NCBI GenBank assembly: GCA_934561395.1
Contig: CAKTGF010000004.1
Coordinates: forward strand, 170,936-234,935
DNA length: 64,000 bases
Direction: 5' to 3'
DNA from: an uncultured Eubacterium sp.
GTDB taxonomy: Bacteria; Bacillota; Clostridia; Oscillospirales; Acutalibacteraceae
The translations under genes were made by a program, and so were the position numbers. Below the pieces are notes generated by a model. It ran no database searches, was not told the origin of the DNA, and saw only the letters and a list, made by a program, of their open reading frames with translations. Shown here in pieces: positions 5,273 through 32,382 of the stretch (position 1 is its first letter; each line of letters starts with the position of its first letter).

Positions 5273-5274
5273 TT

Positions 5275-6528: not shown

Positions 6529-6546
6529 TAAAGAGAGGGCAGTAAA

Positions 6547-7401
6547 ATGGACTTAGATAACAGAATGAAGGCGGAGGTTCTTGCAGAGGCTCTCCCCCAT
6601 ATTCAAAGATACAGAAAGAAAACCATTGTTGTTAAATACGGCGGCAACGCAATGATTAACGAGGAGCTTAAGGAAGCGGTTATGCACGACCTGGTTCTTT
6701 TAACAACCATAGGCATTAAGGTTGTGCTTGTTCACGGCGGCGGCCCTGCCATTAACAGAACCCTTGAGCAAATGGGCATTGAAAGCAAGTTTGTTGATGG
6801 GCTCCGTGTTACGGATAAGGAAACCGTTGATGTTGTTCAAATGGTGCTTGCAGGCAAGGTTAACAAGGATTTGGTTTGCAAAATCTGCAATTTGGGCGGC
6901 CACGCAATCGGCCTTTCGGGTATGGACGGCAATATGATTAAATGCAGCCCCCTTGACACAAGCCACGGCTATGTGGGCGAGATTATCGAAACTAATATGG
7001 AGGTTATTAACGAGGTTCTTGATAATAACTTTATCCCTGTTGTTTCAACAATCGGCTTTGACGAAAAAGGCAACTGCTACAACATTAACGCTGACACCGT
7101 AGCCGCAAGAATTGCAGGTGACCTTAAGGCGGAGGCTTTAATTTCAATGACAGATATTATCGGCCTTTTAAGGGATGTTAACGATGAAAGCTCAAAAATC
7201 CAAAAGGTATTTATAAGCGATATTCCGGCACTTGTAAGCGACGGAATCATTAAAGGCGGTATGATACCGAAAATTGATTCAATGACCCAGGCAATAAGAA
7301 ACGGCTGTAAAAAAGCATTTATTATTGACGGCAGAGTTCCCCACTCCATACTTATGGAAATGCTTACCGACGAGGGCTTGGGAACAATGTTCAGGGGCTA
7401 A
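6547..7401 (+). CDS. argB: Acetylglutamate kinase
   Basis: 284 aa with 'VVKYGGNAM' and 'VLVHGGGP' amino-acid-kinase motifs, in operon position between argJ and argD. Confidence 0.9.
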   Translation: MDLDNRMKAEVLAEALPHIQRYRKKTIVVKYGGNAMINEELKEAVMHDLVLLTTIGIKVVLVHGGGPAINRTLEQMGIESKFVDGLRVTDKETVDVVQMVLAGKVNKDLVCKICNLGGHAIGLSGMDGNMIKCSPLDTSHGYVGEIIETNMEVINEVLDNNFIPVVSTIGFDEKGNCYNINADTVAARIAGDLKAEALISMTDIIGLLRDVNDESSKIQKVFISDIPALVSDGIIKGGMIPKIDSMTQAIRNGCKKAFIIDGRVPHSILMEMLTDEGLGTMFRG

Positions 7402-7415
7402 GAAAGGTAAAATAC

Positions 7416-8579
7416 ATGAACACTAAGGAACTTGACAACAAATATGTTGCACATTCATACGGCAGGTTTGATGTTTGCCTGACTGAGGGCAGCGGCTCAA
7501 CACTTTATGACGAGGCAGGCAAAAAATACATTGATTTCGGTTCGGGAATCGGCGTAAACGCCTTTGGAATTTGCGACGACGAATGGAAAAACGCCGTTAC
7601 CGAGCAGCTTGACAAGGTGCAGCACACCTCAAACCTTTACTACACCGAGCCCTGTGCAAAATTGGCACAGCTGCTTTGCACAAAAACAGGGATGAAAAAA
7701 GTTTTCTTTTGCAATTCCGGTGCAGAGGCTAACGAGGGCGCAATAAAATTTGCAAGAAAATACAGCAACAACAAATACGGCGAGGAGAGGTCAACAATTA
7801 TTACCCTTGTTGACTCCTTCCACGGCAGAACAATAACCACGCTTGCCGCAACCGGTCAGGAGGTTTTTCACACCGATTTCGGCCCCTTCACCCCCGGCTT
7901 TAAATACTGCCCTGCCAACGATATTGAGGCATTAAGAAAAATGGTAACAGACGATGTTTGCGCCATTATGTTTGAGTGTATTCAAGGCGAGGGCGGCGTT
8001 AACAACCTTAACGAGGATTTTGTTGCGGAAATCAACACCCTTGCAAAGGAAAAGGACATTTTAATGGTTGTTGACGAGGTTCAAACAGGCAACGGCAGAA
8101 CAGGCAAATATTTTTCATACGAGCATTTCGGCATTAAGCCGGACATTGTTTCAACAGCCAAGGGTCTTGGCGGCGGCTTGCCCATCGGCGCTGTTTTATT
8201 CGGCGAAAAAACGGCAGACTGCGTTACACCGTCAAGCCACGGCTCAACCTTTGGTGGCAACCCCATTGTTGCCGCAGGTGCAATCAGCATTGTTGAAAGA
8301 ATTGACGATGACTTTTTAATTGCGGTAACCGAAAAAGGCAAATACATAAAGAACTTTGTTAAAAACATTAAGGGTGTTAAAAGCATTTCGGGCATGGGCT
8401 TGATGGTTGGCATTGAAACCCACAAAAACGCCGGCGACATTGCCAAGGAGTGCCTTGAAAAAGGGCTTTTGGTTTTAACCGCTCACAAAAACAAGGTAAG
8501 GCTGCTCCCCGCCCTTAACATAAGCTTTGGCGAATTAAACGAAGGATTAAATATTTTGAAAGAGGTAATTGAAAAATGA
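7416..8579 (+). CDS. argD: Acetylornithine aminotransferase (class III PLP aminotransferase)
   Basis: 387 aa with 'VVDEVQTGNGRTGK' and the PLP lysine context 'STAKGLGGG'. Confidence 0.9.
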   Translation: MNTKELDNKYVAHSYGRFDVCLTEGSGSTLYDEAGKKYIDFGSGIGVNAFGICDDEWKNAVTEQLDKVQHTSNLYYTEPCAKLAQLLCTKTGMKKVFFCNSGAEANEGAIKFARKYSNNKYGEERSTIITLVDSFHGRTITTLAATGQEVFHTDFGPFTPGFKYCPANDIEALRKMVTDDVCAIMFECIQGEGGVNNLNEDFVAEINTLAKEKDILMVVDEVQTGNGRTGKYFSYEHFGIKPDIVSTAKGLGGGLPIGAVLFGEKTADCVTPSSHGSTFGGNPIVAAGAISIVERIDDDFLIAVTEKGKYIKNFVKNIKGVKSISGMGLMVGIETHKNAGDIAKECLEKGLLVLTAHKNKVRLLPALNISFGELNEGLNILKEVIEK

Positions 8580-9478
8580 AGCACTTATTGAAATTACAGG
8601 ATTTGGACAAAAACGAAATTTTAGACATACTTAACCTCGCTGACCAGCTTAAGTATGAAAACCACAACGGCATTAAGCACCATCATCTTAAGGGCAAAAC
8701 CCTTGGCATGATTTTTCAAAAAAGTTCAACCCGCACAAGAGTAAGTTTTGAAACAGGTATGTATCAGCTTGGCGGTCAGGCATTATTTCTTTCAAATAGG
8801 GATTTGCAAATCGGCAGAGGCGAGCCCGTGCAGGACACTGCAAGGGTGCTGTCACGCTATCTTGACGGTATTATGATAAGAACCTTTGAGCAAAAAGAGG
8901 TTGAGGATTTGGCTGAATACGGCTCAATTCCAATTATCAACGGCCTTACCGATTACTGCCACCCCTGCCAGGTGCTTGCAGACCTTATGACAATAAGAGA
9001 ATACAAAAAAAGCTTTGACGGCTTAAAGTTCTGCTTTATCGGCGACGGCAACAACATGGCTAACAGTCTTATTGTAGGTGCAATTACCATGGGTATGGAA
9101 TGTGCAATCGCCTGCCCCGACGATTACAAGCCTGACAGCGAAATAATGAAATGGGCTGAAGAAAACGGCAAATTTACCTGCTCATCCGATATTTTGGCTT
9201 GTGCAAAGGGCGCAGATGTTATTTACACCGATGTTTGGGCATCAATGGGTCAAGAGGAAGAAAAGGCAGAGAGAGAAAAGATATTTAAAAACTACCAAAT
9301 CAACGATGAGGTTATGGCTGTTGCAAATGACAAGGCAATGGTTCTCCACTGCCTGCCTGCACACAGAGAGGAAGAAATAACCGCAAAGGTATTTGAGGAG
9401 CATGCAAACGAAATTTTTGACGAGGCTGAAAACAGGCTCCACGCTCAAAAGGCAGTTTTGGTTAAATTATTAGGATAA
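8576..9478 (+). CDS. argF: Ornithine carbamoyltransferase
   Basis: 'STRTRVSFE' carbamoyl-phosphate-binding motif and 'HCLPA' motif. The start overlaps the argD stop (ATGA). Confidence 0.9.
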   Translation: MKHLLKLQDLDKNEILDILNLADQLKYENHNGIKHHHLKGKTLGMIFQKSSTRTRVSFETGMYQLGGQALFLSNRDLQIGRGEPVQDTARVLSRYLDGIMIRTFEQKEVEDLAEYGSIPIINGLTDYCHPCQVLADLMTIREYKKSFDGLKFCFIGDGNNMANSLIVGAITMGMECAIACPDDYKPDSEIMKWAEENGKFTCSSDILACAKGADVIYTDVWASMGQEEEKAEREKIFKNYQINDEVMAVANDKAMVLHCLPAHREEEITAKVFEEHANEIFDEAENRLHAQKAVLVKLLG

Positions 9479-9494: not shown

Positions 9495-10574
9495 ATGACA
9501 GAAAATAAAGAAATTTACATTTGCCTTGAAAACGGTCAAACATTTAAGGGCTACAGCTTTGGTGCGGAAAGCGATGTAATAGGCGAGCTTGTTTTCACAA
9601 CGGGTATGGGCGGTTATATCGAAACCCTGACCGACCCCAGCTATTACGGACAGATTGTAATGCAAACCTTCCCCCTTATCGGCAACTACGGCATGATAAG
9701 CGAGGATATGGAAAGCAAAAAATCCTATGTAAGCGCCTATGTTGTAAGAGAAAAGTGCGATAACCCGTCAAATTTCAGATGTGAGGGCACACTTGAGAAC
9801 TTTTTAAAGGAAAACAATATAGTGGGCGTTTACGGCGTTGACACAAGGGAGATTACAAAAATTATCCGTGAAAGCGGCGTTATGAACGCACAAATCACAA
9901 CCAACCCAAATAAGGTTGATTATGAAAAAATAAAGGAATACAAGGTAACAAAGGCTGTTGAAAGCGTTTCAACCCACAAGCCCGAGCTTTCACCCAGCAA
10001 GGAACACAAATTTAATGTTGTGCTACTTGACTACGGCGCAAAAAAGAACATTATCAGAGAGCTTAACAAGCGTGGCTGCAATGTGGCGGTTATGCCATAC
10101 AACACCAAAGCCGAGGATATCTTAAAATTAGGCGTTGACGGCGTTATGCTTTCAAACGGCCCCGGCGACCCCGGCGAAAACACCGAGGCTGTGGAGGAGC
10201 TTAAAAAACTTATAGGCAAGGTGCCCATTTTCGGAATTTGCCTTGGCCATCAGCTTTTGGCACTGGCTATGGGCGGCGAAACCACAAAGCTTAAATACGG
10301 CCACAGAGGCGTTAACCAGCCTGTTAAAAACCTTGAAACAGGCAGAACCTACATTTCGTCCCAAAACCACGGCTATGCGGTGGTTAGCGAAAGCGTTGAA
10401 AAAAGTGGCGGCGTTATTATGTATGTTAACGCTAACGACAACACCTGCGAGGGTGTGGATTACCCTGACAAAATGGCATTTTCGGTACAATTTCATCCGG
10501 AGGCTTGCTCAGGCCCGCATGACACACAGTTTATTTTTGACAAATTTATTAAAATGATGGGAGGTAACAAATAA
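9495..10574 (+). CDS. carA: Carbamoyl-phosphate synthase small (glutaminase) subunit
   Basis: 359 aa with the class-I GATase 'GICLGHQ' catalytic Cys motif. The stop overlaps the carB start. Confidence 0.9.
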   Translation: MTENKEIYICLENGQTFKGYSFGAESDVIGELVFTTGMGGYIETLTDPSYYGQIVMQTFPLIGNYGMISEDMESKKSYVSAYVVREKCDNPSNFRCEGTLENFLKENNIVGVYGVDTREITKIIRESGVMNAQITTNPNKVDYEKIKEYKVTKAVESVSTHKPELSPSKEHKFNVVLLDYGAKKNIIRELNKRGCNVAVMPYNTKAEDILKLGVDGVMLSNGPGDPGENTEAVEELKKLIGKVPIFGICLGHQLLALAMGGETTKLKYGHRGVNQPVKNLETGRTYISSQNHGYAVVSESVEKSGGVIMYVNANDNTCEGVDYPDKMAFSVQFHPEACSGPHDTQFIFDKFIKMMGGNK

Positions 10575-13500
10575 TGCCTCTTGATAAAAGCATAAAAAAG
10601 GTACTTATGATTGGCTCAGGGCCGATAGTTATCGGTCAGGCTGCGGAATTTGACTACGCAGGCGCACAGGCCTGCCGTGTTTTAAGGGATGAGGGCATTG
10701 AGGTTGTGCTTATCAACTCTAACCCTGCAACAATTATGACTGACAATGCCCTGGCAGACCATATTTACCTTGAACCTTTAACGGAAGGAACCGTAAAGCG
10801 TATAATCGAAATTGAACGCCCGGACTCAATATTATGCGGCCTTGGGGGTCAAACAGGACTTACCATCGGCATGCAGCTTGCTAAAGACGGCTACCTTGAC
10901 CAAATGGGCGTTAGGCTCCTTGGCACAAACGCCGAGGCTATTGATAAAGCTGAGGACAGGCAAATGTTCCGTGACACAATGGTTAAGCTTAACCAGCCCG
11001 TTGTGCCCAGCGACATTGCAAACGACCTTGAAACTGCAAAAAAAATCGCCGACGAAATCGGCTACCCTGTTATTATTCGCCCGGCATTCACATTGGGCGG
11101 TGCTGGCGGCGGCGTTGCTTACAACAGGCAGGAGCTTGACATTATTGCCAAAAACGGCTTAATGCTCTCCCCTATCACACAAATTTTGGTAGAAAAATAT
11201 ATCGCAGGCTGGAAAGAAATTGAGTTTGAGGTTATGCGTGACCATATCGGCAATGTAATTGCCGTGTGCTCAATGGAAAACTTTGACCCTGTAGGAGTGC
11301 ACACCGGCGACAGCATTGTAATTGCTCCGGCTGTTACCCTTTCTGATAAGGAGTACCAAATGCTCCGCTCCGCTTCACTTGACATTATCACGGAGTTAGG
11401 CATTGAGGGCGGCTGCAACTGCCAATTTGCCCTTAACCCCGAAACCTTTGAATACAGCGTTATTGAGGTTAACCCCAGAGTTTCACGGTCGTCTGCGCTG
11501 GCGTCAAAGGCAACAGGCTACCCAATTGCAAAGGTAACAACAAAAATTGCCTTGGGCTACACCCTTGACGAAATTAAAAACGATGTAACAGGCAAAACCT
11601 GCGCTTGCTTTGAACCAACCCTTGACTATGTTGTTGTTAAGGTGCCCAAATGGCCCTTTGACAAATTTGTTCAGGCATCACGCAAGCTTGGCACACAAAT
11701 GAAGGCAACAGGCGAGGTTATGAGCATTGCCCCAACCTTTGAGGCTGCAATAATGAAAGCGGTCAGAGGTGCGGAAATCGGCCTTGACACATTAAACAAC
11801 AAGGCAATAAGCAGCGATAATTTAACAGAGCAACTCCACAGGCAGGACGATTTAAGGCTGTTCACTGTGTTTAAGGCTCTCCAAAACGGTATTTCCGTTG
11901 ATGAAATCCACAACATAACCATGATTGACGAGTGGTTTTTATACAAGCTTAAAAATCTTGTGGAATATGAAAAGGAAATTGCGGGAAATCCACTTTCAAA
12001 GGAGCAGTATTTAAGGGGTAAGAACTATGCCTACCCCGATAAGGCACTTGAAAGAATAAGCGGCTATCCCCTTGCCTTTCATCAAAACTGCGTTTATAAA
12101 ATGGTTGACACCTGCGGCGCGGAATTTGCCGCAGAAACACCATACTTTTATTCAACATACGATGAACACTGCGAATCAAGAGCCCTTGAAAAATCAGGCA
12201 AGGATAAAATTATTGTTCTCGGCTCGGGCCCTATAAGAATAGGTCAGGGCATTGAGTTTGACTACTCCTCGGTTCACTGCGTTTGGACATTAAAGGAGCT
12301 GGGCTACGAGGTTATACTTGTTAACAACAACCCCGAAACCGTATCAACCGACTTTGACACAGGCGACAGGCTTTATTTTGAGCCCCTGTGCGAAGAGGAT
12401 GTAATGAACATTATTAAGGCTGAAAACCCAATAGGCGTTGTAGTTGCGTTCGGCGGTCAAACCGCAATCAAGCTTACAAAATTTTTGGATGAAAACGGCA
12501 TTAAGATTTTGGGCACCTCTGCCGAATCAATTGACATTGCGGAGGACAGAGAGCGCTTTGACGAGTTGCTTGAAAGCTTTGGTATATGCAGACCCAAGGG
12601 CACATCGGTTATGACCCTTGACGAGGCGCTGAATGCCGCCAACACGCTTGAATACCCTGTTCTTCTTCGCCCAAGCTATGTAATCGGCGGTCAGAATATG
12701 ACCATTGCATACACAGACGATGATGTTAAGCAGTATATGTCAATAATTCTTGCGCAAGGCATTGAAAACCCTGTGCTGGTTGACAAATATATGATGGGAA
12801 CAGAACTTGAGGTTGACTGTATAAGCGACGGCAAGGATGTGCTTATTCCCGGAATAATGGAGCATATTGAGCGTGCCGGCGTTCACAGCGGCGACAGCAT
12901 AGCTGTATATCCGCCATACAATCTTAACGATATGATGCTGGAAAAAATATGCGATATTTCACAAAAGCTTGCACTTTCGCTGGGAACAAAGGGCCTTGTT
13001 AACATTCAATATTTAATTTACAGAAACGAGCTTTATGTTATTGAGGTTAACCCCAGAGCGTCACGCACAATACCTTATATCAGCAAGGTTACAGGCGTGC
13101 CTATGGTAGAGCTTGCCACAAAAATTATGGTTGGCTCATCTCTAACTGAATTGGGCTACGGCAAGGGACTGTATCACATTCCCCCGTATTTCGCCGTTAA
13201 GGTGCCTGTATTCAGCTTTGAAAAGCTTAACGATGTTAACTCACAGCTCGGCCCTGAAATGAAATCCACAGGCGAGGTGTTGGGCGTTGGCAAAAACCTT
13301 AAGGAGGCGCTTTTCAAGGGTCTTGTAAGCGCAGGCTTTAATGTTGATGTTAACAAAAACGGCCACGGCGTTCTTATTACCGTTACCAAGCAGGACAGAT
13401 ACGAAATAGTAAACCTTGCCAAAAAGCTTGACGATTTGGGTGCAAAGCTTTGGGCAACCCCTGAAACCGCAAAGGAAATTGCCCGCCTCGGCATTGATGT

Positions 13501-14602
13501 TAATGTTGTTAACAAACTGCAAGACGATAATTCAATTATGAATTTGGTTGAAAGCGGCAAGCTTGACTACATTGTTTACACCGGCAAAAGCGATAAAAAG
13601 TCAATTGCCGATTATATCAAGCTGCACAACCGTGCAAACCAGCTTGGCATTGCCACATTAACCTCACTTGACACAGCAAACGCTTTGGCAGACATAATTG
13701 CATCACGCTACAACCAAAGCAACACAGAGCTTGTGGATATTAACAATATGCGTAAAGAAAAAAGCATACTTAAGTTCTCTAAAATGGAGGGCACCGGGGA
13801 TGACTACATTTTCTTTAATAACCAATGCGGAATTATTACCTGCCCCGAAAGCTTCGCCATTGAATTTTGTGACAGGCATTATTCCATCGGCGGCGACGGC
13901 ATTGTGCTTATTGAAAACAGCACTGTTGCCGACGCTAAAATGAGAATATTCAACCTTGACGGCTCAGAGGGTAAAATGGCAGGAAACTCCATTCGCTCGG
14001 TGGGCAAGTTCCTTTACGATAACGATATTGTTAAAAAGGATAATATGACCATTGAAACAGCTGCAGGCATTAAGCAGCTTAAGCTCTTTACCCGTGAGGG
14101 CAAGGTATCGTCTGTAACGGTTGATATGGGCAAGGTTCAGTTTAAACCCGAGCTGATACCTGTAAGTATTAATAAGAATAAGATTATTAACGAGCCTATC
14201 AGCGTGCTTGATAAGGAATATAACATTACCTGCGTTTCGGTAGGTAACCCCCACTGCGTAGTTTTTGTTGACAATGTTGATAAGGTAGATATTGAAAATG
14301 TAGGCCCTAAGTTTGAAAGCCTTAACATTTTTCCTGAAAGAGTTAATACCGAGTTTGTAAGAGTGGTTAACCCCAACACAATTAAAATGCGTGTTTGGGA
14401 GCGTGGAAACGGCGAAACCCCTGCCTGCGGAACAGGCGCCTGCGCCGCTGTTGCCGCCGCTGTTGAAAACGGCTATTGCAATAAGGGCGAGGATATAATC
14501 GTTAAGCTCCGTGGCGGCGATTTAATCGTTAATTACAGCGACGAAAGAATTACCCTTTCCGGCAACACAAACCTTGTCTATAAAGGCGAAATTGAATATT
14601 AA
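10574..14602 (+). CDS. carB: Carbamoyl-phosphate synthase large subunit fused in frame to a C-terminal diaminopimelate epimerase (DapF) domain
   Basis: 1342 aa, versus ~1060-1075 aa for a typical CarB. Residues ~1-1064 contain the two ATP-grasp halves (including 'EVNPRVSRSSALASKATG'). Residues ~1065-1342 begin 'LKFSKMEGTGDDYIFF' (cf. E. coli DapF 'MQFSKMHGLGNDFMVV') and contain 'GNPHCV' and 'ETPACGTGACAA', the two catalytic-Cys motifs of DapF. There is no stop codon between the two parts. Confidence 0.8.
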   Translation: MPLDKSIKKVLMIGSGPIVIGQAAEFDYAGAQACRVLRDEGIEVVLINSNPATIMTDNALADHIYLEPLTEGTVKRIIEIERPDSILCGLGGQTGLTIGMQLAKDGYLDQMGVRLLGTNAEAIDKAEDRQMFRDTMVKLNQPVVPSDIANDLETAKKIADEIGYPVIIRPAFTLGGAGGGVAYNRQELDIIAKNGLMLSPITQILVEKYIAGWKEIEFEVMRDHIGNVIAVCSMENFDPVGVHTGDSIVIAPAVTLSDKEYQMLRSASLDIITELGIEGGCNCQFALNPETFEYSVIEVNPRVSRSSALASKATGYPIAKVTTKIALGYTLDEIKNDVTGKTCACFEPTLDYVVVKVPKWPFDKFVQASRKLGTQMKATGEVMSIAPTFEAAIMKAVRGAEIGLDTLNNKAISSDNLTEQLHRQDDLRLFTVFKALQNGISVDEIHNITMIDEWFLYKLKNLVEYEKEIAGNPLSKEQYLRGKNYAYPDKALERISGYPLAFHQNCVYKMVDTCGAEFAAETPYFYSTYDEHCESRALEKSGKDKIIVLGSGPIRIGQGIEFDYSSVHCVWTLKELGYEVILVNNNPETVSTDFDTGDRLYFEPLCEEDVMNIIKAENPIGVVVAFGGQTAIKLTKFLDENGIKILGTSAESIDIAEDRERFDELLESFGICRPKGTSVMTLDEALNAANTLEYPVLLRPSYVIGGQNMTIAYTDDDVKQYMSIILAQGIENPVLVDKYMMGTELEVDCISDGKDVLIPGIMEHIERAGVHSGDSIAVYPPYNLNDMMLEKICDISQKLALSLGTKGLVNIQYLIYRNELYVIEVNPRASRTIPYISKVTGVPMVELATKIMVGSSLTELGYGKGLYHIPPYFAVKVPVFSFEKLNDVNSQLGPEMKSTGEVLGVGKNLKEALFKGLVSAGFNVDVNKNGHGVLITVTKQDRYEIVNLAKKLDDLGAKLWATPETAKEIARLGIDVNVVNKLQDDNSIMNLVESGKLDYIVYTGKSDKKSIADYIKLHNRANQLGIATLTSLDTANALADIIASRYNQSNTELVDINNMRKEKSILKFSKMEGTGDDYIFFNNQCGIITCPESFAIEFCDRHYSIGGDGIVLIENSTVADAKMRIFNLDGSEGKMAGNSIRSVGKFLYDNDIVKKDNMTIETAAGIKQLKLFTREGKVSSVTVDMGKVQFKPELIPVSINKNKIINEPISVLDKEYNITCVSVGNPHCVVFVDNVDKVDIENVGPKFESLNIFPERVNTEFVRVVNPNTIKMRVWERGNGETPACGTGACAAVAAAVENGYCNKGEDIIVKLRGGDLIVNYSDERITLSGNTNLVYKGEIEY

Positions 14603-14997: not shown

Positions 14998-15639
14998 ATG
15001 AACGAAAACAATCAACAACCCCAATACCCACAAGGAGAAAATCAACAATTTCAACAAGGGCAGTATTATCAACAACCTGTGTATATGCCCCAGCAGCCTG
15101 TGAAAAAGAAAAAGCCGCTCCATAAAAAGTGGTGGTTTTGGCTAATAATAGTCATTGTAGCTATTGCAATTATATCATCATTGGGTTCACGTGATGACAC
15201 TGCAACAAACGACAATAGTTCCGGTGTTATCAACACATCAGCGGAAAACACAGAGGTTAGTGCATCTGATACAGAAACAACTGAAAATACAACAGAGTCT
15301 ACAACAAAGGAAACCACAACGGAAAAGAAAGTTCCTACCGAATATCATTCCGCCCTTACAAAAGCGCAAACATACAGCGATGTTATGTATATGTCAAAGC
15401 AAGGAATATATGACCAATTAACCTCTGAATACGGCGAAAAGTTTTCAGAGGAAGCTGCAAAATATGCGGTTGAGCATGTCAACGCTGATTGGAATTATAA
15501 TGCATTGCAAAAGGCAAAAACATATCAAGAAGAAATGGCAATGTCCCCTTCAGCAATACATGACCAGCTAACCTCAAGCTATGGAGAGAAATTCACAAAA
15601 AAGCAGGCAGACTATGCAATTGAGCATTTAAACGATTAA
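14998..15639 (+). CDS. Membrane-anchored protein with two Ltp-family (host cell surface-exposed lipoprotein, PF07553-like) repeats and a Gln/Pro-rich N-terminus
   Basis: Q/P-rich residues 1-35, a single TM 'WWFWLIIVIVAIAIISSL', and a Thr/Glu-rich linker. Two repeats of 'Q/TYxxxMAMS..IHDQLTS.YGEKF(S/T)..A.YA(V/I)EH' follow. Confidence 0.6.
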   Translation: MNENNQQPQYPQGENQQFQQGQYYQQPVYMPQQPVKKKKPLHKKWWFWLIIVIVAIAIISSLGSRDDTATNDNSSGVINTSAENTEVSASDTETTENTTESTTKETTTEKKVPTEYHSALTKAQTYSDVMYMSKQGIYDQLTSEYGEKFSEEAAKYAVEHVNADWNYNALQKAKTYQEEMAMSPSAIHDQLTSSYGEKFTKKQADYAIEHLND

Positions 15640-15660
15640 TGCATATTTGCTATAGTTCAC

Positions 15661-15702
15661 AAAAAATCCGAGATTCACTGATTTGTGAATCTCGGATTTT
15701 TT
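15661..15702. terminator. Bidirectional rho-independent terminator
   Basis: A 13-bp perfect stem ATCCGAGATTCAC/GTGAATCTCGGAT flanked by an A6 run and a T6 run. It separates the Ltp-like gene from the convergent glycopolymer operon. Confidence 0.9.
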
Positions 15703-17519: not shown

Positions 17520-17837
17520 TTATTCTTCAATGTCAATATTTTTCTTAACCTTTTTTGATGCCTTTGCGGCAGAAATATATTCGTCAAGGCCCTCGGTATC
17601 AATTTCGCCGGGGTTTTCCATTCCCTTATCAATCATATTATTAAGGGCGTCAAAGCCGTCGGAATATTTATCCTTAACCTGCTGCGAGGCGTTTTTGTTC
17701 ATATCCTCAGAAACATTGTTTGCCAAATCCTTAAGTGAGGATAAAGCGCCCATAAGCTCCTCAGGGGTTGCCTTATCCAAATCCTTTGGCATATTCTTTT
17801 TAACCTGACCGAGAATGTCTGCAAATGAAAATCCCAT
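17520..17837 (-). CDS. Hypothetical soluble acidic protein
   Basis: 105-aa ORF within the operon, tightly spaced with its neighbours. No motif recognised. Confidence 0.4.
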   Translation of the reverse strand: MGFSFADILGQVKKNMPKDLDKATPEELMGALSSLKDLANNVSEDMNKNASQQVKDKYSDGFDALNNMIDKGMENPGEIDTEGLDEYISAAKASKKVKKNIDIEE

Positions 17838-17840: not shown

Positions 17841-19898
17841 TTACTCCTTATTCTGCTTTTGTTTTTTTATTAATTGCTGAATTATATATTTACCTGCAAC
17901 CTCGCCGTTTTTGCCGAAATTGGAAATATATGTGTTGCGAATGTTAAGTATTTTATCGGCATAGCTGTCCTTTTGCTCCAAAAGGCTCTGCGCCGCATTA
18001 TATGCCTTGCCTGCCTCGTTAACCTCCAGGCTTATGCCAACCTCATTTCTAAGCTTAATTTCCAAAGGCTCAATGCCGATTTGCTTATATTCCTTGTTCA
18101 TAACCTTCATGGGCGTGTTAATAAACAAGCAGGGCTTTAGGGTTACATAGGAATATTCAAAGGCAATTGCCGACCAATCGGTAATCAGCAGGTCTGACTG
18201 ATAAATTGAGTCGCTTGATGTGAAATCAAGCTCAAATTTTAAATCGTCGCCCTTATAGTCAGAGTATTTTTTAACAATTGCGTCAAGCCTTTGCGAATAA
18301 CGCTTAACATATTCGGGATGTGGGCGAACAATAATGTTAAGCCCCTTTCCCAAAAGGGAGGATAAAAGCTCATCCAGGCAAAGGTCAAGAATATTATCCT
18401 CCTGCCAGGAGGGTGCAACAAGCACCCGGGGTGTGCCCCCCTCTCGCCTTGGCATTTGGTCATACTGCTGCTTTAAAATCTCCAAAAAGCCGTAGCCTGC
18501 CATAACAAGGTTCTTTGGCGGTAGATTATAAATCTCCTCCTGCCTGCGGATTTCGGGAATTTGGAACTCACCTATGCAGAAGATAGTATCATAGCTGTCA
18601 AGGCTGTGGTTATTAAGCAAAAGGTGCGTGCTCATAGGGCCGTGCATAGTATAAATATACTCAATATCCTTGCGGATATATGAACGTTTGTAATGGAAAT
18701 TTTCAATATCCGGCATTGTCATTAAAACAATGTCAGCATCCATTTTCATAAACAGGGTTATAAGCTTTTTTTCGCCGATAAAATAGGGCCTTATCTTTGA
18801 ATTTTCCTTGGCTAAATTAAAAATATTATCATTAGGGTCGCTTGTAACATAATGGATAATAATATTTGAATTATTCAGTAAGTAATCAATAATTGTGCTG
18901 AAATATTTGTAATAGCCGTTCCGCTCGGAATAAATAACAAGGTGCTTGTTTGCAACGGAAAAGAATTTTTTATAATCTGCCTTTTCACGCCTGTAAAGCT
19001 GGCTGCCTACCTCAATTTTATTTTTTTGGCCCACGGAATCAATTTTTTCAAGCTCTTTTTTACTTTCCTCAAGAGCCTTATAGTCAATATATTTTTTAGG
19101 GTTTATTATTGCATTTAAAACCAGCTGTTGAACCATTGTGAACAGGTTGCTGAAAATCCAGTAAAGGCCGATGCCTGCCGGCACAAAGCCGCCGAGAACA
19201 AGTGAAATGCCAACCGAAAGTGCATTTGTAGCCAGCTGCTGAGCCCTGCCCTGCTCCGCCTGCAAGGGGTTCATTTTGTTTTGAAACAAGCACAGTGCCA
19301 AAGCGCAGCCCCCTGCTAAAACCGGAACCAAAAGCATTATTCCCCCTGCCGCAATAGGTGTGGAGGATAAATCAAAGCCCAAAAAGTTCATATCAAGGGC
19401 TTTTATTGCCGACAAATCGGTGCCGTCAACCGTAAATCCCTCCTGTATCGCTTTTACAACCGCAAGCTGAATTGAATTTGAGCTGCTGTCAAGTCCCATG
19501 CCGGCACAAACGGAATTAATAAGCGCCGAAGCGGTATTTTTATCCATAGCAAGCACATTGCTCAAGGGATTATAAATAATTTGAACAACGCACATTAACA
19601 GCACAAGCTGAATAACCATGGGCAGCATGCCTGCCAATGGGCGATATTTTTCTCTTTTATAAAGGCTTAACTGCTCCTCTGAAATTTTATCTTTTTCGCC
19701 GTAGTATTTGGCTTTAATCACATTAAGCTCGGGCTGGAGCTTAACAAGTTTTACAGAATTTTTATGGGTCCATAAGGAAACAGGAAGCATAACAACCTTT
19801 GTCAGCAGGGTAAATAAAATTATTGCCAGCCCGTAGTTTGACAGCAGGTTGTAGCAAAGCCGCATTATGTAACCGAAAGGATACGCTAAATACTCCAT
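17841..19898 (-). CDS. Fusion protein: N-terminal YidC/Oxa1-family membrane insertase domain plus C-terminal CDP-glycerol glycerophosphotransferase (TagB/TagF-like) domain
   Basis: Residues ~1-280 contain 'LQPELNVIKAKYYGEKDKISEEQLSLYKREKYRPLAGMLPMVIQLVLLM', matching the YidC/SpoIIIJ conserved region (LQPEM..KY....Q.E...LYK..G.NPLAGCLP..IQ). Residues ~300-685 contain 'YIYTMHGP', 'LVAPSW' and 'IVRPHP', the Glyphos_transf-type blocks of TagF-like enzymes. Confidence 0.65.
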   Translation of the reverse strand: MEYLAYPFGYIMRLCYNLLSNYGLAIILFTLLTKVVMLPVSLWTHKNSVKLVKLQPELNVIKAKYYGEKDKISEEQLSLYKREKYRPLAGMLPMVIQLVLLMCVVQIIYNPLSNVLAMDKNTASALINSVCAGMGLDSSSNSIQLAVVKAIQEGFTVDGTDLSAIKALDMNFLGFDLSSTPIAAGGIMLLVPVLAGGCALALCLFQNKMNPLQAEQGRAQQLATNALSVGISLVLGGFVPAGIGLYWIFSNLFTMVQQLVLNAIINPKKYIDYKALEESKKELEKIDSVGQKNKIEVGSQLYRREKADYKKFFSVANKHLVIYSERNGYYKYFSTIIDYLLNNSNIIIHYVTSDPNDNIFNLAKENSKIRPYFIGEKKLITLFMKMDADIVLMTMPDIENFHYKRSYIRKDIEYIYTMHGPMSTHLLLNNHSLDSYDTIFCIGEFQIPEIRRQEEIYNLPPKNLVMAGYGFLEILKQQYDQMPRREGGTPRVLVAPSWQEDNILDLCLDELLSSLLGKGLNIIVRPHPEYVKRYSQRLDAIVKKYSDYKGDDLKFELDFTSSDSIYQSDLLITDWSAIAFEYSYVTLKPCLFINTPMKVMNKEYKQIGIEPLEIKLRNEVGISLEVNEAGKAYNAAQSLLEQKDSYADKILNIRNTYISNFGKNGEVAGKYIIQQLIKKQKQNKE

Positions 19899-21654: not shown

Positions 21655-21800
21655 TTATTACTCCCAAATACCGACAGTAATTTGTGCACCAAGCACGAGG
21701 CTGTCTTTAGATAATATATTGATTATAGCATAAATACACAAATCAGTAAAGAAAGTTTATTAATAATTTACAGTAATTATGTAATATGCACAAATAAACA

Positions 21801-21831
21801 TAAAAAAGACCGACTGATTAAACAGTCGGTC
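21801..21831 (-). terminator. Rho-independent terminator of the radical SAM gene
   Basis: A GACCGACTG/CAGTCGGTC stem. On the minus strand it is followed by a T-run (A-run 21801-21807 on the plus strand). Confidence 0.75.
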
Positions 21832-27767: not shown

Positions 27768-27800
27768 AAAAAATACCGAGGCACGCCTCGGTATTTTTTT
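27768..27800. terminator. Bidirectional rho-independent terminator
   Basis: A TACCGAGGC/GCCTCGGTA stem flanked by an A-run and a T-run. It lies between ldh and the convergent IspD/TarI-like gene. Confidence 0.85.
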
Positions 27801-28455
27801 ATTTATGTTTTTTTGCTGTGAGGAAGGCCTCAAGGTATTTTAAGTCCTCGGGATATGTAAGCTTAAAGTTATTGTTAAAATCGAAATAAAGCTTAATTGG
27901 GGCGCTTTCAGGCAGCTGCTGCGTAACCTCCGTAAGCTTGGAGCATTCGTCAAAGTGCTCATAAAGCAAATTGAAATCAAAGCCCTCGGGAGATTGCATT
28001 AAATAATACCTTTCCCTATCCACCTTTTGGAAATCGTAACAGCCCAGAGAATCTGTAATCTTTTGGGCGGTTACAACTGCGGAGTAATCGTTAAGGTATT
28101 CAAAATAGCTGTCGATATGTTCGCTTGTTACCATTGGCCTTACAGCGTCGCAAACAATGAGCTTTTTGCAGCTGTAATTGCCGTGAATATAATCAAGAAC
28201 ATTTTTAAGGGTTTTATTTCTTGTATCTCCGCCCTGAATTAAATCAATATTGCCTGCCCTGCAAATATCCTCAAGATAAACACTGTTGGCTTTAACATCG
28301 GTGGCAATAACCAATTTATCGGTGCTGTTTGAATTTAAAACAGAGTCAATAACATATTCAATTATCATTTTATCGCAAACCTTGGCGAACTGCTTTGGAA
28401 TTTCAGCACCGAAACGAGCGCCCACGCCGTTTGCAAGAATAGCAACTATGTTCAT
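27799..28455 (-). CDS. IspD/TarI-family sugar-(alcohol)-phosphate cytidylyltransferase
   Basis: 'ILANGVGARFGAEIPKQF' matches the IspD/TarI glycine-rich CTP-binding motif. It is the last gene of the rmlAB operon, not an MEP-pathway context. Confidence 0.65.
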   Translation of the reverse strand: MNIVAILANGVGARFGAEIPKQFAKVCDKMIIEYVIDSVLNSNSTDKLVIATDVKANSVYLEDICRAGNIDLIQGGDTRNKTLKNVLDYIHGNYSCKKLIVCDAVRPMVTSEHIDSYFEYLNDYSAVVTAQKITDSLGCYDFQKVDRERYYLMQSPEGFDFNLLYEHFDECSKLTEVTQQLPESAPIKLYFDFNNNFKLTYPEDLKYLEAFLTAKKHK

Positions 28456-28461
28456 AATTTT

Positions 28462-29481
28462 TTACCTGTCAGAATACATTTTTTCGTAATAGCTTTGGTA
28501 TTCCCCTGAAATAATATTCTCCCACCAGGGCTTGTTTTGCAAATACCAATCTATGGTTTTTTTAATTCCGTCGTCAAACCTTGTTTGCGGCAACCAGCCA
28601 AGCTCGTTATGTATTTTTGCGGGGTCGATAGCATAGCGCATATCGTGGCCGGGTCTGTCGGTAACAAAGGTAATAAGCGATTCGGGCTTGTTAAGGTGTT
28701 TTAATATTGCCTTAACCACCTGCAAATTGGTTCTTTCGTTATGGCCGCCCACATTATAAACCTGGCCTACTCTGCCCTTGCGCATTACCAAATCAATGGC
28801 TGAGCAATGGTCCTCAACATAAAGCCAGTCACGCACATTTTCCCCGGTGCCGTAAACAGGCAGGCTTTGGTCTGCAAGAGCCCTGCTGATAATCAGCGGT
28901 ATCAACTTTTCGGGGAAATGATAGGGGCCGTAGTTATTTGAGCACCTTGTTATTGAAACCGGCAAGCCGTAGGTTCTGTAATAAGCCAGCACCAACAAAT
29001 CTGCCCCTGCCTTTGATGATGAATATGGGGAGGAGGTGTGAATAGGCGTTTCCTCGGTAAAGAAAAGGTCAGGTCTGTCAAGGGGCAAATCGCCATATAC
29101 CTCGTCGGTGGAAACCTGATGGTAGCGCTTAATGCCGTATTTCCTGCAAGCGTCCATAAGTACCTGAACGCCCATAATATTTGTTTTTAAAAAAATTTCG
29201 GGATTTTCTATTGAGCGGTCAACATGGGATTCTGCGGCAAAATTAACCACAATATCCGGCTTATGTTCCTCAAACATCTTGTTGATGGCGTTGCGGTCGG
29301 CAATGTCGGCCTTAACAAAGGTAAATGAGGGGTTATTCATAACAGGCTCAAGGGTTTCCAAATTGCCTGCATAGGTTAAGCTGTCAACACAAATAATTTT
29401 ATCCTCGGGATGATTTTTCAGCTGATAAAATATAAAATTTGAACCGATAAAACCTGCGCCGCCGGTAACAACTATATTCAT
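28462..29481 (-). CDS. rfbB: dTDP-glucose 4,6-dehydratase
   Basis: 'VTGGAGFIGSNF' and the 'YxxxK' short-chain-dehydrogenase catalytic context ('YSSSKAGAD'). Confidence 0.9.
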   Translation of the reverse strand: MNIVVTGGAGFIGSNFIFYQLKNHPEDKIICVDSLTYAGNLETLEPVMNNPSFTFVKADIADRNAINKMFEEHKPDIVVNFAAESHVDRSIENPEIFLKTNIMGVQVLMDACRKYGIKRYHQVSTDEVYGDLPLDRPDLFFTEETPIHTSSPYSSSKAGADLLVLAYYRTYGLPVSITRCSNNYGPYHFPEKLIPLIISRALADQSLPVYGTGENVRDWLYVEDHCSAIDLVMRKGRVGQVYNVGGHNERTNLQVVKAILKHLNKPESLITFVTDRPGHDMRYAIDPAKIHNELGWLPQTRFDDGIKKTIDWYLQNKPWWENIISGEYQSYYEKMYSDR

Positions 29482-29483
29482 TT

Positions 29484-30377
29484 TCAGTCCTCCTCGTGCA
29501 TTGCTTCATCGGCAACATTGTGAAGATATTTGCCGTAATCCGATTTGCCGTATTTTTCGGCAGATTTAAGCAGCTGCTCCCTGTCGATTATGCCCTTGCG
29601 AAAGGCAATTTCTTCGGGAGCTGAAATTCTGATTCCCTGCTGGTTTTGAATTGTTTTTACAAAATTACCGGCATCAATAAGGCTGTCCATAGTGCCGGTA
29701 TCAAGCCAGGCAAAGCCCCTGCCCAACAGCTTAACATCAAGCTGATTTTCATTAAGGTAAAGGCTGTTTAAATCGGTAATTTCAAACTCTCCCCTTGCAG
29801 ACGGGCTTAAACCCTTGGCAAATTCAACACAGCGGTTATCGTAAAAGTAAAGGCCGGTAACCGCCCAGGGAGATTTTGCTTTTTCAGGCTTTTCCTCAAT
29901 AGAAATAACCCTGCCATTTTGGTCAAATTCTATAATACCGAAGCGCTCCGGGTCCTCAACATGGTAGCCGAAAACCGTCGCCCTGCCATTAATCAAAGCG
30001 TTTTCCTTAGCCTGGGTAAGCAGCTTGCTGAGCCCTGCTCCGTAAAAAATATTGTCGCCTAAAATCATGGCGCAGCAATCGTCGCCGATAAAATCCTCGC
30101 CGATAACAAAGGCCTGTGCCAAGCCGTCCGGCGAGGGCTGCTCTTTATATGAAAGCTTAACGCCGTATTGGCTGCCGTCCCCCAAAAGCTTTTTAAAATT
30201 AGGCAAATCCTCGGGGGTGGAAATAATCAAAATATCGTCAATGCCTGCAAGCATAAGTGTGCTGAGAGGATAATAAATCATCGGCTTGTCATAAACCGGT
30301 AAAAGCTGCTTTGATGCAACAAGGGTTAAGGGATAAAGCCTTGTTCCCGAGCCGCCTGCTAAAATTATACCCTTCAT
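29484..30377 (-). CDS. rfbA: Glucose-1-phosphate thymidylyltransferase
   Basis: '[18 protein letters not shown]' and '[17 protein letters not shown]', the RmlA signatures. Confidence 0.9.
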
Positions 30378-30379
30378 AA

Positions 30380-31519
30380 CTAATCTCCTAAACCAAGTTC
30401 TGTAAGTAGCTGTCTTTGTATATCTGCATTACCGCCCCTTGACACTACCTGCCTTGCTGACGATAAAGCCTGCCTGCGCTTTTTTAACACAGCATCAAGC
30501 AATCTGTTAAGCCTTGCCACAGGCAATAACAGCTTGTTTTTGTTGTAATACGGATATGCTTTTTTTAAAAATTCCCTGCTTGGGAACGCAAGCTTTGCCA
30601 GGGTTGAAAGCCTGCTTTTTCCAACTGAATCGACGGGAATTGAATTAACATAATAGCCAAAGCTGCCGCCGTCAAGCATAACGGCGCCAAAGCACTCCTC
30701 CAGCCTGCCGTCAATTTCAAAATCGGCTGAAACAGGGGTGTTAAACCATTTTTTGCACAGTGAAAGGAGCACCCTTGTGCATTGCAGTACCCCTGCGTTT
30801 TCTGCAAGGTGCATTAATTTTTCTTCATCAAAGCCGTTAATGCCTCGGGCCATAGCATCAATATCCATTAACATTCTGACCCCTGCTCCCCTGTATGAAA
30901 GGTGCTTGCACAAATGGCATATAACATAAATCAGCTCGTCATATTCGGACAGGCTGTAATTATAATCATATTTTAAAGCAGAAATATCAAAAATATTGTC
31001 AAAATACGGTGTTTTTAAATCGGCACCGCTATGGAACTCAACTTCCACGCCGCCAATATCAACATTTATAACATTTGTTGAATAATTTTTAATTTTAAAA
31101 TCGGTATTTTTAAGCTGTTTATATACACCGTCAAGGGTGTTTTCTCTTAATATAACATCAATGTCGCCGCTGGTGCGAAGAGCAGGCACAGGGTAATAAT
31201 TTTTAACTGTAACACCCTTAACAAATATATGGTCGATTTTGTTTAAATTCAAAAAATCATCTGTAATTTTTAAAGCACTGCTGCGTTTTTCGTCAGCCTG
31301 CACTGCGTAACCCAGCTGCTGGTTAAAAAGTGACTTTATATTTTCATTTGGCTGATTTTCAGGGGGCAGCAGCTTAATTTGGTTCATTAAAATGCCGCAC
31401 AGGTTATGCTTTTTTGCAAGGGTATATACACTTTGCCAATCAACATTTTCCCCTTTGGGGGCAGTGCCGTTTAAAAAGCTTGCCAGGAGATGAATAAAAT
31501 ATTCTTTTTCAGCTGTCAT
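30380..31519 (-). CDS. Pol-beta-superfamily nucleotidyltransferase of the uncharacterised NTP_transf_5 (PF14907-like) family
   Basis: '[16 protein letters not shown]' is a hG[GS]..D.D nucleotidyltransferase motif, and the protein is ~380 aa. The likely start is MTAEKEYF, which has an AGGAGGGGA RBS. The track ORF begins 60 nt earlier. Confidence 0.6.
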
Positions 31520-31594
31520 TGCATCCCCTCCTAAAAATCGGTATATATTTATTATATTTGCAATATACTGCCAAGTCAAGGAAAAGCAGGCTTG

Positions 31595-32321
31595 CTAAAT
31601 TTTGCACTCGTCATAGCTTAAGCCGCACATTTCCTCAAAGGAGGTTTTAACCGCCTCCTCCGACATATCACAGCTTAAGGAATAAAGGGGTATTTTTGAA
31701 AGGCTGTTAATAAGCTCCAGAGTTTTTACGGTGGCGTTAGCGTCAAAAGGCATATAAACCTGCTTAATAACCTCGCTTAAATTAGCACCGAAGCCGATTT
31801 TTTCAATTTTATTAACAGTTCCCCTGTTCACAATGCATACTGCCTTTAAAGGGGCGCTGGAATAGTTTTGCCAGCCCTCCTTGCCTGCATAAGGGGTTGA
31901 ATAAATAGTTGCGCCGTTATCCGTTATTCTGATAATGGGCTTGTCGCCGTTAACAAATGCCACACCATTACCCAAATATTTTCTCCACAATGAAATATGG
32001 GTGGATTTTCCCGTTCCGCTGGGGGCGGTAAAAACAAAGCCCATATTTTTATAAGATATTGCGGCACCGTGGAGAATAAATCTGTTATAAAAAGGCAGTC
32101 TTTCTGCAATTTCACGGTAAATGCAGGTGGTTTCGGCAAATGCCGGCGAGGGTATGCCCTTGCACATTTCAACCTCTTCAGAAATTTTCTTTTCAGTTGA
32201 CTTAACCGAAAAATCAGGCTCCGCTTCAGTTAAATATTCCTTGCAAAGGTTAAAGGTATCCTCATAATATGTGGTAATGCCGATGTTAAGGTCAGCAAAA
32301 TTAACAGTAAAATTATACATA
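31595..32321 (-). CDS. HPr-kinase C-terminal-domain-like P-loop kinase (HprK-related kinase)
   Basis: 'LHGAAISYKNMGFVFTAPSGTGKSTHISLW...FVNGD' parallels the HprK catalytic core 'LHG..V...G.GVLI.G.SG.GKSE.AL.L...GH.LV.DD'. It is ~242 aa from an ATG with GGAG 6 nt upstream. It is the first gene after a TTGACT-N17-TATAAT promoter. Confidence 0.55.
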
Positions 32322-32382
32322 AAGCACTCCAAACAATTTATACCTTAATTATAAAGGCAAACCGATATTAAGTCAAGCAAGC

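Follow-up and report, generated by a model that had tools for sequence, protein, structure and literature searches.

In Staphylococcus aureus, the YpfP-LtaA-LtaS system combines a glycosyltransferase inside the cell with the major facilitator superfamily flippase LtaA and with LtaS outside; LtaS consumes phosphatidylglycerol, and EptA consumes phosphatidylethanolamine. Enzymes of the TagF family carry variable extra N-terminal domains and bind the membrane monotopically (PMC10901376). The base in their reaction is a histidine, H444 in TagF and H300 (following W299) in TarL, and a second histidine of TarL, H433, touches the alpha-phosphate and aids the departure of CMP, both TarL residues being required (PMC10901376). 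Purified YidC of Escherichia coli scrambles glycerophospholipids in vitro, and MisCB of Bacillus subtilis does so in silico (PMC11047089). CMP-2-aminoethylphosphonate (CMP-AEP) and CDP-choline are activated head groups whose downstream tailoring is called "enigmatic", with LicD-like transferases associated, in PMC6697681. Here we describe a gene that joins a YidC/Oxa1 core to a TagF-like domain, found in a 64,000-nucleotide stretch of contig CAKTGF010000004.1 from an uncultured Eubacterium sp. (the window, positions 170,936 to 234,935 of the contig). The gene lies head to tail with those of an LtaS-like protein and of a small membrane protein, YxDP; these parts co-occur and are naturally fused in relatives, and each enzyme part looks catalytically intact. 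It is possible, if somewhat short of probable, that the fusion lies at the heart of a membrane relay of four parts, which takes small phosphate- or phosphonate-linked head groups from inside the cell to its surface.

We are confident that the YidC-TagF fusion is not an artefact, since its exact sequence recurs across contigs and orthologues are present in at least 80 species. The identical 685-residue protein is encoded on seven contigs in NCBI, Logan and ENA data, of which the longest measures 288 kb. Full-length homologues, more than 100 of them with identities of 51-99%, show the same architecture, as do 80 species-representative genomes. The intact open reading frame, the independent contigs and the homologues together rule out an origin by misassembly or frameshift. 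Cultured carriers include Eubacterium coprostanoligenes ATCC 51222, Lachnospira eligens and Clostridium aminobutyricum DSM 2634; carriers among metagenome-assembled genomes (MAGs) include Ruminococcus flavefaciens, many Oscillospiraceae and Lachnospiraceae and three Lentisphaerota, and the few loci with other taxon labels may reflect binning errors. The original prediction, which had called for a survey of the architecture's distribution, held the fusion to be undescribed. We too found no paper on it, most subscription-journal papers lying outside our search, but the architecture is common in public data, where the only name it bears, if any, is "membrane protein insertase YidC" (NCBI and JGI).

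An AlphaFold2 model of the fusion, built with 70 homologues, was confident throughout (mean predicted local distance difference test score 90.5, predicted TM-score 0.75). Compared with the PDB by Foldseek, the model matched TagF (3l7k) best and then generic GT-B enzymes, while its N-terminal half matched YidCs. We place the borders at residues 1-265 for YidC, 266-315 for a linker and 316-685 for the GT-B domain (Table 1), so that the borders given in the original prediction (1-280 and ~300-685) were essentially correct. Its two assignments, a YidC/Oxa1 domain and a Glyphos_transf-type domain, also stand: the N-terminal part scores above cut-off with both YidC models, rather than only as a generic membrane anchor, the C-terminal part is recovered by Pfam, by its TagF fold and by profile alignment with TarL, and neither a stop nor a frameshift separates the two. 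What had been overlooked are an insertion of about 76 residues within the YidC part, the LtaS-like partner, YxDP and the natural fusions, all described below.

The N-terminal core has the layout expected of the YidC/Oxa1 family: an EH1-like helix, the first transmembrane helix (TM1), the C1 hairpin, TM2, TM3, TM4 and a TM5 with the YW..SN motif. Pfam 60KD_IMP (PF02096), with a cut-off of 35 bits, scored 120.5 on residues 22-262 and aligned there from position 1 to position 162 of its 163, and TIGR03592 (yidC_oxa1_cterm) matched with 115.5 bits (cut-off 84.3). Searched against PDB sequences, the full-length fusion found YidC only (E. coli 3wvf and B. halodurans 3wo6). The structure agrees, with a TM-score of 0.68 to 3wo7 for the YidC half and a root-mean-square deviation of 3.9 over 265 columns to 6al2; the modelled helices span residues 22-36, 38-64/69-82, 87-109, 186-209, 218-238 and 241-264, and both the five-TM fold and the cytoplasmic C1 helical hairpin are present. 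Residue K34 falls at the groove arginine of E. coli YidC. By these measures the core belongs to the YidC/Oxa1 family, and insertase activity itself would be a prediction from that membership.

Conservation within the core is uneven in an informative way. Across 70 close homologues, K34, P39, P93, Q97, G242, Y246 and W247 are invariant (P93 and Q97 lie in the "PLAGMLP..IQ" stretch, correctly placed in the YidC core by the original prediction and corresponding to TM2), and mean pairwise identity is 0.58 in the core, 0.62-0.65 in the catalytic halves and 0.66 in TM4-5. The extracytoplasmic insertion between TM2 and TM3, by comparison, has a mean pairwise identity of 0.35 and varies in length from 0 to 92 residues among fused representatives, with 76 in the window; consistent with it, the Pfam match stretches a 163-position profile over 241 residues. 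To these we added a more divergent set of 52 fused representatives, whose YidC parts are 21-52% identical to that of the window. Position 34 is lysine in 41 of them and arginine in eight (K/R in 49 of the 50 that are ungapped), W247 and N251 never vary, and P39, P93, Q97, Q206, Q213 and N262 hardly do. Because the groove residues are kept in divergent representatives while the insertion drifts, the core is not degenerate, and selection acts on the groove and not on the insertion.

The C-terminal domain is tied to the TagF family by fold and by profile. Its top Foldseek match in the PDB was TagF (3l7k_D, E 1e-9, TM-score to target 0.57), with generic GT-B enzymes behind. Pfam Glyphos_transf (PF04464) matched with 39.7 bits (cut-off 22.1) over residues 482-593 only, or profile positions 186-292 of 367; the match reaches further in some relatives (profile 12-292 in representative P0121 and 12-349 in the fusion of locus L045). 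A search of 1.84 billion representatives with residues 268-685 returned 480 relatives at E <= 1e-30, and the domain belongs to a distinct clade with only weak, partial matches to Glyphos_transf. As a single sequence against PDB sequences, the C-terminal domain returned nothing relevant, as the full-length query returned only YidC and the corresponding domain of P0121 only noise. A family profile built from the window domain and its standalone relatives matched TarL (8va1) and Cps3D (8qoy) at E ~2e-6, with H527 on TarL H433.

To relate both histidines to TarL, we relied on profile-profile alignment. A canonical TagF paralogue, sought in 80 related loci as a bridge for the alignment, was not obtained, the sole candidate (420 aa, locus L037) being too divergent. 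A protein search seeded with a fragment of TarL gave only fragments of at most 253 aa, several of which span the WH motif and were sufficient for hhalign. The family profile of the C-terminal domain aligned with these TarL-family fragments at 96.9% probability (E 1.4e-10) over 252 columns, roughly residues 392-670, pairing "IEYIYTM-H419-G" with "EIIQVW-H-A" and "RP-H527-P" with "KM-H-P"; H419 thus occupies the W299-H300 column of TarL and H527 the xHP column. When the window domain was aligned with 59 standalone relatives, ten residues were invariant, among them H419 and H527, and these two are invariant in fused and standalone relatives alike. Since both histidines align with catalytic TarL residues and never vary, the catalytic apparatus of a TagF-type enzyme is in place and invariant. 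The domain lies on the cytoplasmic side, as both the canonical YidC topology (N-terminus out, C-terminus in) and the triple fusions described below require.

The LtaS-like partner has no source name in the databases. A hydropathy scan placed its five TM helices at residues 27-45, 67-85, 89-107, 130-148 and 158-176, and Pfam Sulfatase matched residues 208-515 with 37.1 bits (cut-off 25). Among solved structures, the LtaS of S. aureus (2w5q/2w5r, E ~3e-6) comes closest, with the GDH and HxPF motifs aligned; no NCBIfam model, and so no curated LtaS or EptA model, matched at E <= 0.01, leaving the general Sulfatase family of Pfam. Residues D215, T252, H408, D459 and H460 are invariant across 35 sequences (the window protein and 34 orthologues), a set that fits the catalytic residues of the alkaline phosphatase superfamily, and we take D215 and T252 to be the counterparts of E255 and T300 of LtaS.

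YxDP consists of a short outer-face N-terminus with Y7-x-D9-P10, a TM helix at about residues 17-35, a basic RRAKNKVKK segment and an acidic cytoplasmic tail. The Y, D and P are the only invariant residues in an alignment of the family, which comprises 898 clusters with no Pfam domain and source names that are all "hypothetical". Many YxDP proteins have a hydrophobic N-terminal segment that ends in A-x-A; we do not claim it as a cleaved signal peptide, as the segment is internal in four-part fusions and cleavage is therefore uncertain.

Both partners accompany the fusion closely. Among 80 related loci, in which we counted genes within 7 kb of the fusion gene, an LtaS-like gene was present in 70 (typically on the same strand, a median of 19 nt upstream) and YxDP in 73. 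The partners also accompany C-terminal domains that lack a YidC part: in six sampled loci with a standalone domain, YxDP was found in all six and five have a confirmed gene of the LtaS-like type or the Sulfatase family, the sixth (L084) offering only a 538-aa neighbour that could not be confirmed as such. Some of the standalone loci also carry phosphonate genes.

Natural fusions join the same parts in several orders. We determined the architectures of the 149 best C-terminal-domain representatives: 97 consist of this domain alone, 36 are YidC-C, eight are Sulfatase-YidC-C and eight are YidC-C-Sulfatase (C being the TagF-like domain), so that an LtaS-like part is joined to the YidC-TagF protein in 16 of the 52 fused representatives. 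For every type, Pfam bore out the domains in the examples examined. The two triple fusions that we checked are uninterrupted open reading frames in the DNA of their contigs, and one of these contigs is a 251-kb scaffold. With YxDP included, the orders seen are Sulfatase-YidC-C, YidC-C-Sulfatase, YidC-C-YxDP-Sulfatase, YxDP-C and YxDP-Sulfatase. Four-part YidC::TagF-like::YxDP::LtaS-like chains occur in P0129, P0139, P0145 and P0148; YxDP forms the N-terminus, ahead of a C domain that would otherwise stand alone, in P0156, P0230 and P0243, and ahead of an LtaS-like part in loci L072 and L088. In L088, adjacent genes at 2405-4834 and 5001-9086 (the latter P0129), one encoding a YxDP::LtaS-like protein of 809 aa and the other a four-part chain, share the identical YxDP segment AYAYVDPSVMTYTIQALAGVAVALSAVLGVAFRKTRRK, which looks like the trace of a recent duplication of the YxDP::LtaS-like unit. 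Some relatives have further parts: in P0142 (905 aa) the TagF-like domain is followed by a choline/ethanolamine kinase of the APH fold, which places a head-group kinase and the transferase in one chain, and P0121 (943 aa) and P0128 carry an extra 200-320 extracytoplasmic residues, with no Pfam match, ahead of the YidC core.

All of these orders can be threaded through the membrane in one way, with YidC N-out/C-in, the TagF-like domain inside, YxDP N-out/C-in and the LtaS-like part N-in/C-out. As every fusion order fits this single topology, the four parts appear to form one machine. Topology and fusions further suggest that a head group is loaded inside, held in a lipid-linked intermediate and consumed outside.

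What might be loaded is indicated by genes for donor supply in the related loci. A gene containing a cytidylyltransferase domain lies within 7 kb of the fusion in 35 of the 80, mostly on the same strand, and the types include TagD-like, LicC-like, LicC plus choline kinase, CTP_transf_like::PEP mutase and NTP_transferase::class-V aminotransferase proteins. A phosphoenolpyruvate (PEP) mutase with the EDKxxxxxNS motif, which PMC6697681 gives as specific to PEP mutase (Ppm), is present in 14 loci; a two-domain thiamine pyrophosphate (TPP) enzyme resembling phosphonopyruvate decarboxylase (Ppd) is present in 12 and an iron-containing alcohol dehydrogenase (Fe-ADH) in five. In L019 a single co-directional run comprises YxDP, the fusion, a cytidylyltransferase, a cytidylyltransferase::Ppm protein, Fe-ADH, Ppd and the LtaS-like gene, and in L. 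eligens genes of the LicC/kinase type flank the fusion on both sides. A keyword search of PMC6697681 and PMC8942020 turned up neither YidC nor a glycerophosphotransferase.

The window operon itself contains no donor cytidylyltransferase, and the donor must therefore come from elsewhere in the genome. The nearest candidate in the window, an IspD-family gene at 27799-28455, about 6 kb away, scored below the cut-offs of the IspD and TarI models and is a possible source. As a separate observation, this gene belongs to a run of five on the minus strand (27799-32332) that encode a 245-aa protein of no assigned family, an NTP_transf_5 protein, an RmlA-like thymidylyltransferase, RmlB (TIGR01181, 494 bits) and the IspD-family cytidylyltransferase. 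Downstream of the RmlA/RmlB run, a gene at 32426-36151 (minus) encodes 1241 aa with Big_2 and fibronectin type III domains, probably a surface protein.

Taken together, the parts can be arranged into a working scheme. The TagF-like domain would transfer an activated head group to a lipid hydroxyl in the inner leaflet, with H419 as the base, H527 protonating the leaving group and CMP released; depending on the locus, the head group might be glycerol-phosphate, phosphocholine or a 2-aminoethyl- or hydroxyethyl-phosphonate. The YidC groove, hydrophilic and positively charged (K34), would thin the bilayer so that the charged head group could reach the outer leaflet; we consider it a candidate for the crossing step because YidC scrambles lipids (PMC11047089) and the groove is conserved here. 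Outside, the Thr252/metal centre of the LtaS-like partner would attack the phosphodiester or phosphonodiester and pass the head group to an extracytoplasmic acceptor, such as a wall or membrane glycopolymer, and the lipid carrier freed in this step would return to the inner leaflet. YxDP could be the structural tie between the cytoplasmic and outer-face enzymes, with its Y-x-D-P turn, as a guess, near the LtaS-like active site. A broader claim would be that the YidC fold serves here to conduct lipids instead of inserting proteins, with loading, passage through the groove and handover to the LtaS-like enzyme shared out over one polypeptide, or two to four in other species; that the module is the missing transferase route for phosphonates, phosphocholine or glycerol-phosphate on the surfaces of gut Clostridia and some Lentisphaerota; and that YxDP is an essential subunit. 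It strikes us as rather doubtful as a whole.

Several observations weigh against the relay. The lipid intermediate of the TagF-like step is hypothetical, scrambling by YidC has been demonstrated only with ordinary glycerophospholipids, and the window operon, as noted, lacks a cytidylyltransferase. Standalone TagF-like proteins make up roughly two thirds of the family representatives (the 97 of 149 above), a YxDP helix takes YidC's place in P0156, P0230 and P0243, and YidC is found in none of the six sampled standalone loci, where a substitute flippase is not consistent either, a Polysacc_synt (Wzx-type) gene being present in only one of the six. Homologous systems thus do without YidC, so that the chemistry does not depend on the YidC part and a dedicated flipping module is not obligatory. 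Because of these standalone systems, two other roles for the YidC part have to be considered. It might be a built-in insertase or assembly chaperone for YxDP, and perhaps for the LtaS-like partner, with the lipid crossing by other means, which we judge unlikely though by no means far-fetched. YxDP does have the shape of a YidC-only substrate: we take one of its forms, in which a very short acidic N-tail is translocated ahead of one TM helix, to resemble Pf3 coat, and the other, in which some ten residues of loop separate a signal-like helix from a TM helix, to resemble M13 procoat. Its translocated segment has an invariant Asp to set against the K/R of the groove, the core has lost neither the C1 hairpin nor any of the canonical YidC motifs, and YxDP accompanies the fusion in most loci. 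Yet the same YxDP protein occurs in systems without a fused YidC, and a dedicated insertase is therefore not needed; a stoichiometric, covalently attached insertase would be an odd solution for a catalytic activity, YxDP sits within the same chain in the four-part fusions, and in L045 a housekeeping YidC is already at hand. Alternatively the core might serve, as the original prediction had also considered, as a passive anchor or scaffold beside its partners, its groove having no function of its own. The extra N-terminal domains and monotopic binding of TagF-family enzymes (PMC10901376) would suit such a role, as would the standalone homologues without YidC and those with a single N-terminal YxDP helix; but a mere anchor should lose its groove, and here the charge at position 34 and the P, Q, YW and N motifs persist at 21-52% identity, the core being about as conserved as the catalytic halves while the insertion drifts. 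We regard the passive anchor as distinctly unlikely.

The remaining explanations take one half of the fusion at face value. According to the original prediction the enzyme is a teichoic-acid polymerase, and a classical poly(glycerol-phosphate) polymerase in which YidC couples synthesis to translocation would agree with the Glyphos_transf match, with TagF as best structural match, with both catalytic histidines and with the TagD-like cytidylyltransferases of some relatives. That label fits poorly. The domain forms its own clade with a weak and partial Pfam score, no tagO-, tagA-, tagB- or tagGH-type genes are annotated among the genes scanned around the module, and the obligatory partner is an LtaS-like enzyme on the outer face. 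Many loci, moreover, supply phosphocholine or aminoethylphosphonate donors; neither has a free hydroxyl, so that on chemical grounds these loci should perform a single transfer and not a polymerisation, and for the TagF-like domain in general single transfer seems likelier than polymerisation. The YidC groove takes short polar segments and would be unsuited to long polyanions. We therefore hold a polymerase to be very improbable. The opposite simplification, a housekeeping YidC whose ribosome-binding tail has been replaced by a cytoplasmic domain, has in its favour the name given by NCBI and JGI and the canonical core, and we give it hardly any credence. No rnpA-, yidD- or jag-type genes were found among the annotated neighbours in the window or among the gene families that recur next to the fusion in the 80 loci, and the fusion's neighbours are instead envelope-modification genes. 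In L045, a Lentisphaeria MAG, a yidD-yidC pair (3280-5453) lies 4.5 kb from the YidC-TagF fusion (9977-11857), and its YidC, which has the periplasmic P1 domain, scores 186.6 bits with 60KD_IMP compared with 81.7 bits for the fusion; there, with the two as near neighbours, the fusion is an additional YidC paralogue.

In the window, the module forms a unit of five head-to-tail genes running from 21654 to 15715, for the LtaS-like partner, the fusion, a 105-aa open reading frame (ORF), YxDP and an oxidoreductase dependent on flavin adenine dinucleotide (FAD), with gaps of 10, 3, 23 and 6 nt; the unit is made up of the core three proteins and two accessory genes. The 105-aa ORF is real, as its exact sequence occurs on 46 public contigs; it had no homologue in the 80 related loci and no Pfam or NCBIfam match, and it is a lineage-specific insertion into the operon and probably not a core part. 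The FAD oxidoreductase, last gene of the unit, occurs in only three of the 80 loci, all distant relatives (L027, L028 and L031), in the same position after YxDP; it is an accessory gene of a minority of loci, and its NF005549 family is uncharacterised.

Table 1. Positions of the module and its features in the window; residue numbers refer to the encoded protein.
Feature	Position (nt)	Strand	Remarks
YidC-TagF fusion gene	17841..19898	minus	uninterrupted ATG-to-TAA open reading frame, 685 aa plus stop
YidC/Oxa1 core, residues 1-265	19104..19898	minus	60KD_IMP, TIGR03592, PDB sequence and fold matches
Groove residue K34, codon	19797-19799	minus	in TM1; aligned with E. coli R366
Extracytoplasmic insertion TM2-TM3, residues 110-185	19344..19571	minus	partly helical, lineage-variable
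TagF-family GT-B domain, residues 316-685	17844..18953	minus	Glyphos_transf, fold, profile alignment
Putative catalytic histidine H419, codon	18642-18644	minus	hhalign to TarL H300 column
Putative catalytic histidine H527, codon	18318-18320	minus	hhalign to TarL H433 column
Motifs of the TagF-like domain			APSW 495-498, RPHP 525-528, DWS 574-576 (fusion residues)
LtaS-like partner, 581 aa	19909..21654	minus	five TM helices and extracytoplasmic alkaline-phosphatase-superfamily domain
YxDP membrane protein, 71 aa	17281..17496	minus	73 of 80 loci, all six standalone-type loci
105-aa ORF	17520..17837	minus	between fusion and YxDP genes; soluble, probably helical
FAD-dependent oxidoreductase, 519 aa	15715..17274	minus	PRK07208/NF005549 family, NF005549 795 bits
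Promoter-like site	21722..21750	minus	TTTACT, 17 nt, TATAAT, extended -10 TG; consensus match only
Terminator of upstream radical-SAM gene	21808-21831		precedes promoter-like site
Hairpin and T-run	~15660-15695		past FAD oxidoreductase gene; read from sequence

The annotated flanks of the unit are housekeeping or unrelated genes, for arginine biosynthesis, an energy-coupling factor (ECF) S-component, a GntR regulator, a GH43 glycosidase and lactate dehydrogenase. Convergent with the module, and sharing its terminator region, a gene at 14998-15639 (plus) encodes a protein of 213 aa that has a single TM helix, an N-terminus rich in Q and P, and a pair of repeats of Lipoprotein_Ltp (157.7 bits), a family described as a host cell surface-exposed lipoprotein. 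Further along the same side, a 1342-aa gene (10574-14602, plus) ends an arginine operon of ArgJ, ArgB, ArgD, OTCase and CarA; it contains a full carbamoyl-phosphate synthase large chain (through the MGS domain at about residue 1030) and, C-terminal to it, a pair of diaminopimelate-epimerase domains (PF01678, 186 bits, to residue 1325), and would be a CarB::DapF fusion.

The module matters for several reasons. It offers a testable candidate for how CMP-AEP, and likewise CDP-choline, reaches surface polymers where LicD is not the answer, and in several gut bacteria it stands beside complete phosphonate head-group pathways in one co-directional run. Scrambling by YidC/Oxa1 proteins has so far been seen in vitro and in silico and is not known to have a dedicated biological use; the fusion, with a YidC core tied between an enzyme that modifies lipids in the cytoplasm and one that consumes them outside, could show whether nature uses it and, if the relay is real, would be the first natural case of Oxa1-family scrambling as a selected function. 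Clostridia of the human and ruminant gut carry the family in abundance (E. coprostanoligenes, L. eligens, R. flavefaciens and many MAGs), and zwitterionic decorations of their surface affect host recognition. In the databases, meanwhile, the fusion is misdescribed as a plain "YidC" and YxDP as a "hypothetical protein" without a domain family. The YidC/Oxa1, TagF-like and LtaS-like families are each known already, and the architecture is visible in domain databases; what is new is the combination of a YidC core joined to a TagF-like enzyme, its obligatory companions (the LtaS-like protein and YxDP) and the linkage to genes that activate phosphonates and phosphocholine.

Each half of the fusion has well-described relatives. 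With TagF, TarL, TarF, TagB and the TagF-like capsule polymerase Cps3D it shares the GT-B fold, both histidines, the AP(S/T)W, xHP and TD(W/Y)S motifs, a cytoplasmic site of action and the linkage to cytidylyltransferases. Unlike these enzymes, it approaches the membrane by a covalent YidC core (or, in relatives, a YxDP helix) instead of amphipathic helices, falls in a separate clade, has an obligatory LtaS-like partner and probably uses donors that include phosphocholine and phosphonates. With YidC/Oxa1/Alb3 proteins such as E. coli YidC, B. halodurans YidC2 and SpoIIIJ/MisCB it has in common the five-TM core, the C1 hairpin, the charge in TM1 and the P, Q and YW..SN residues. It departs from them in that the groove residue is lysine in most members, whereas the aligned YidCs have arginine, in lacking a lipoprotein signal and the P1 domain, in its 76-residue TM2-TM3 insertion, in the replacement of the ribosome-binding tail by a 370-aa enzyme and in its position outside an rnpA/yidD context.

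As a system, the module follows the same logic as YpfP-LtaA-LtaS, in which an inner transferase acts on a lipid, the lipid is moved out and a five-TM Thr/metal LtaS works outside; here the corresponding parts would be a TagF-like enzyme and a YidC fold, the parts are fused or adjacent, YxDP is added and the head groups appear to vary. The idea of loading inside, flipping and transferring outside is also that of GtrA/GtrB/GtrX, CsbB/GtcA/YfhO and ArnC/ArnEF/ArnT, but those systems handle sugars on undecaprenyl phosphate with GT-A enzymes, small GtrA- or EamA-type flippases and GT-C enzymes, and contain no TagF-like, YidC or LtaS-like component. With the Lic (LicA/LicC/LicD) and Pnt (PntC) pathways, the related loci share LicC/PntC-type cytidylyltransferases, choline-kinase domains, PEP mutase fusions, the phosphonopyruvate-decarboxylase-like TPP enzyme, AEP-type aminotransferases and Fe-ADH. 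The difference lies in the last step: the transferase of those pathways is LicD, according to PMC6697681, whereas in the loci described here the candidates for that step are the TagF-like and LtaS-like pair.

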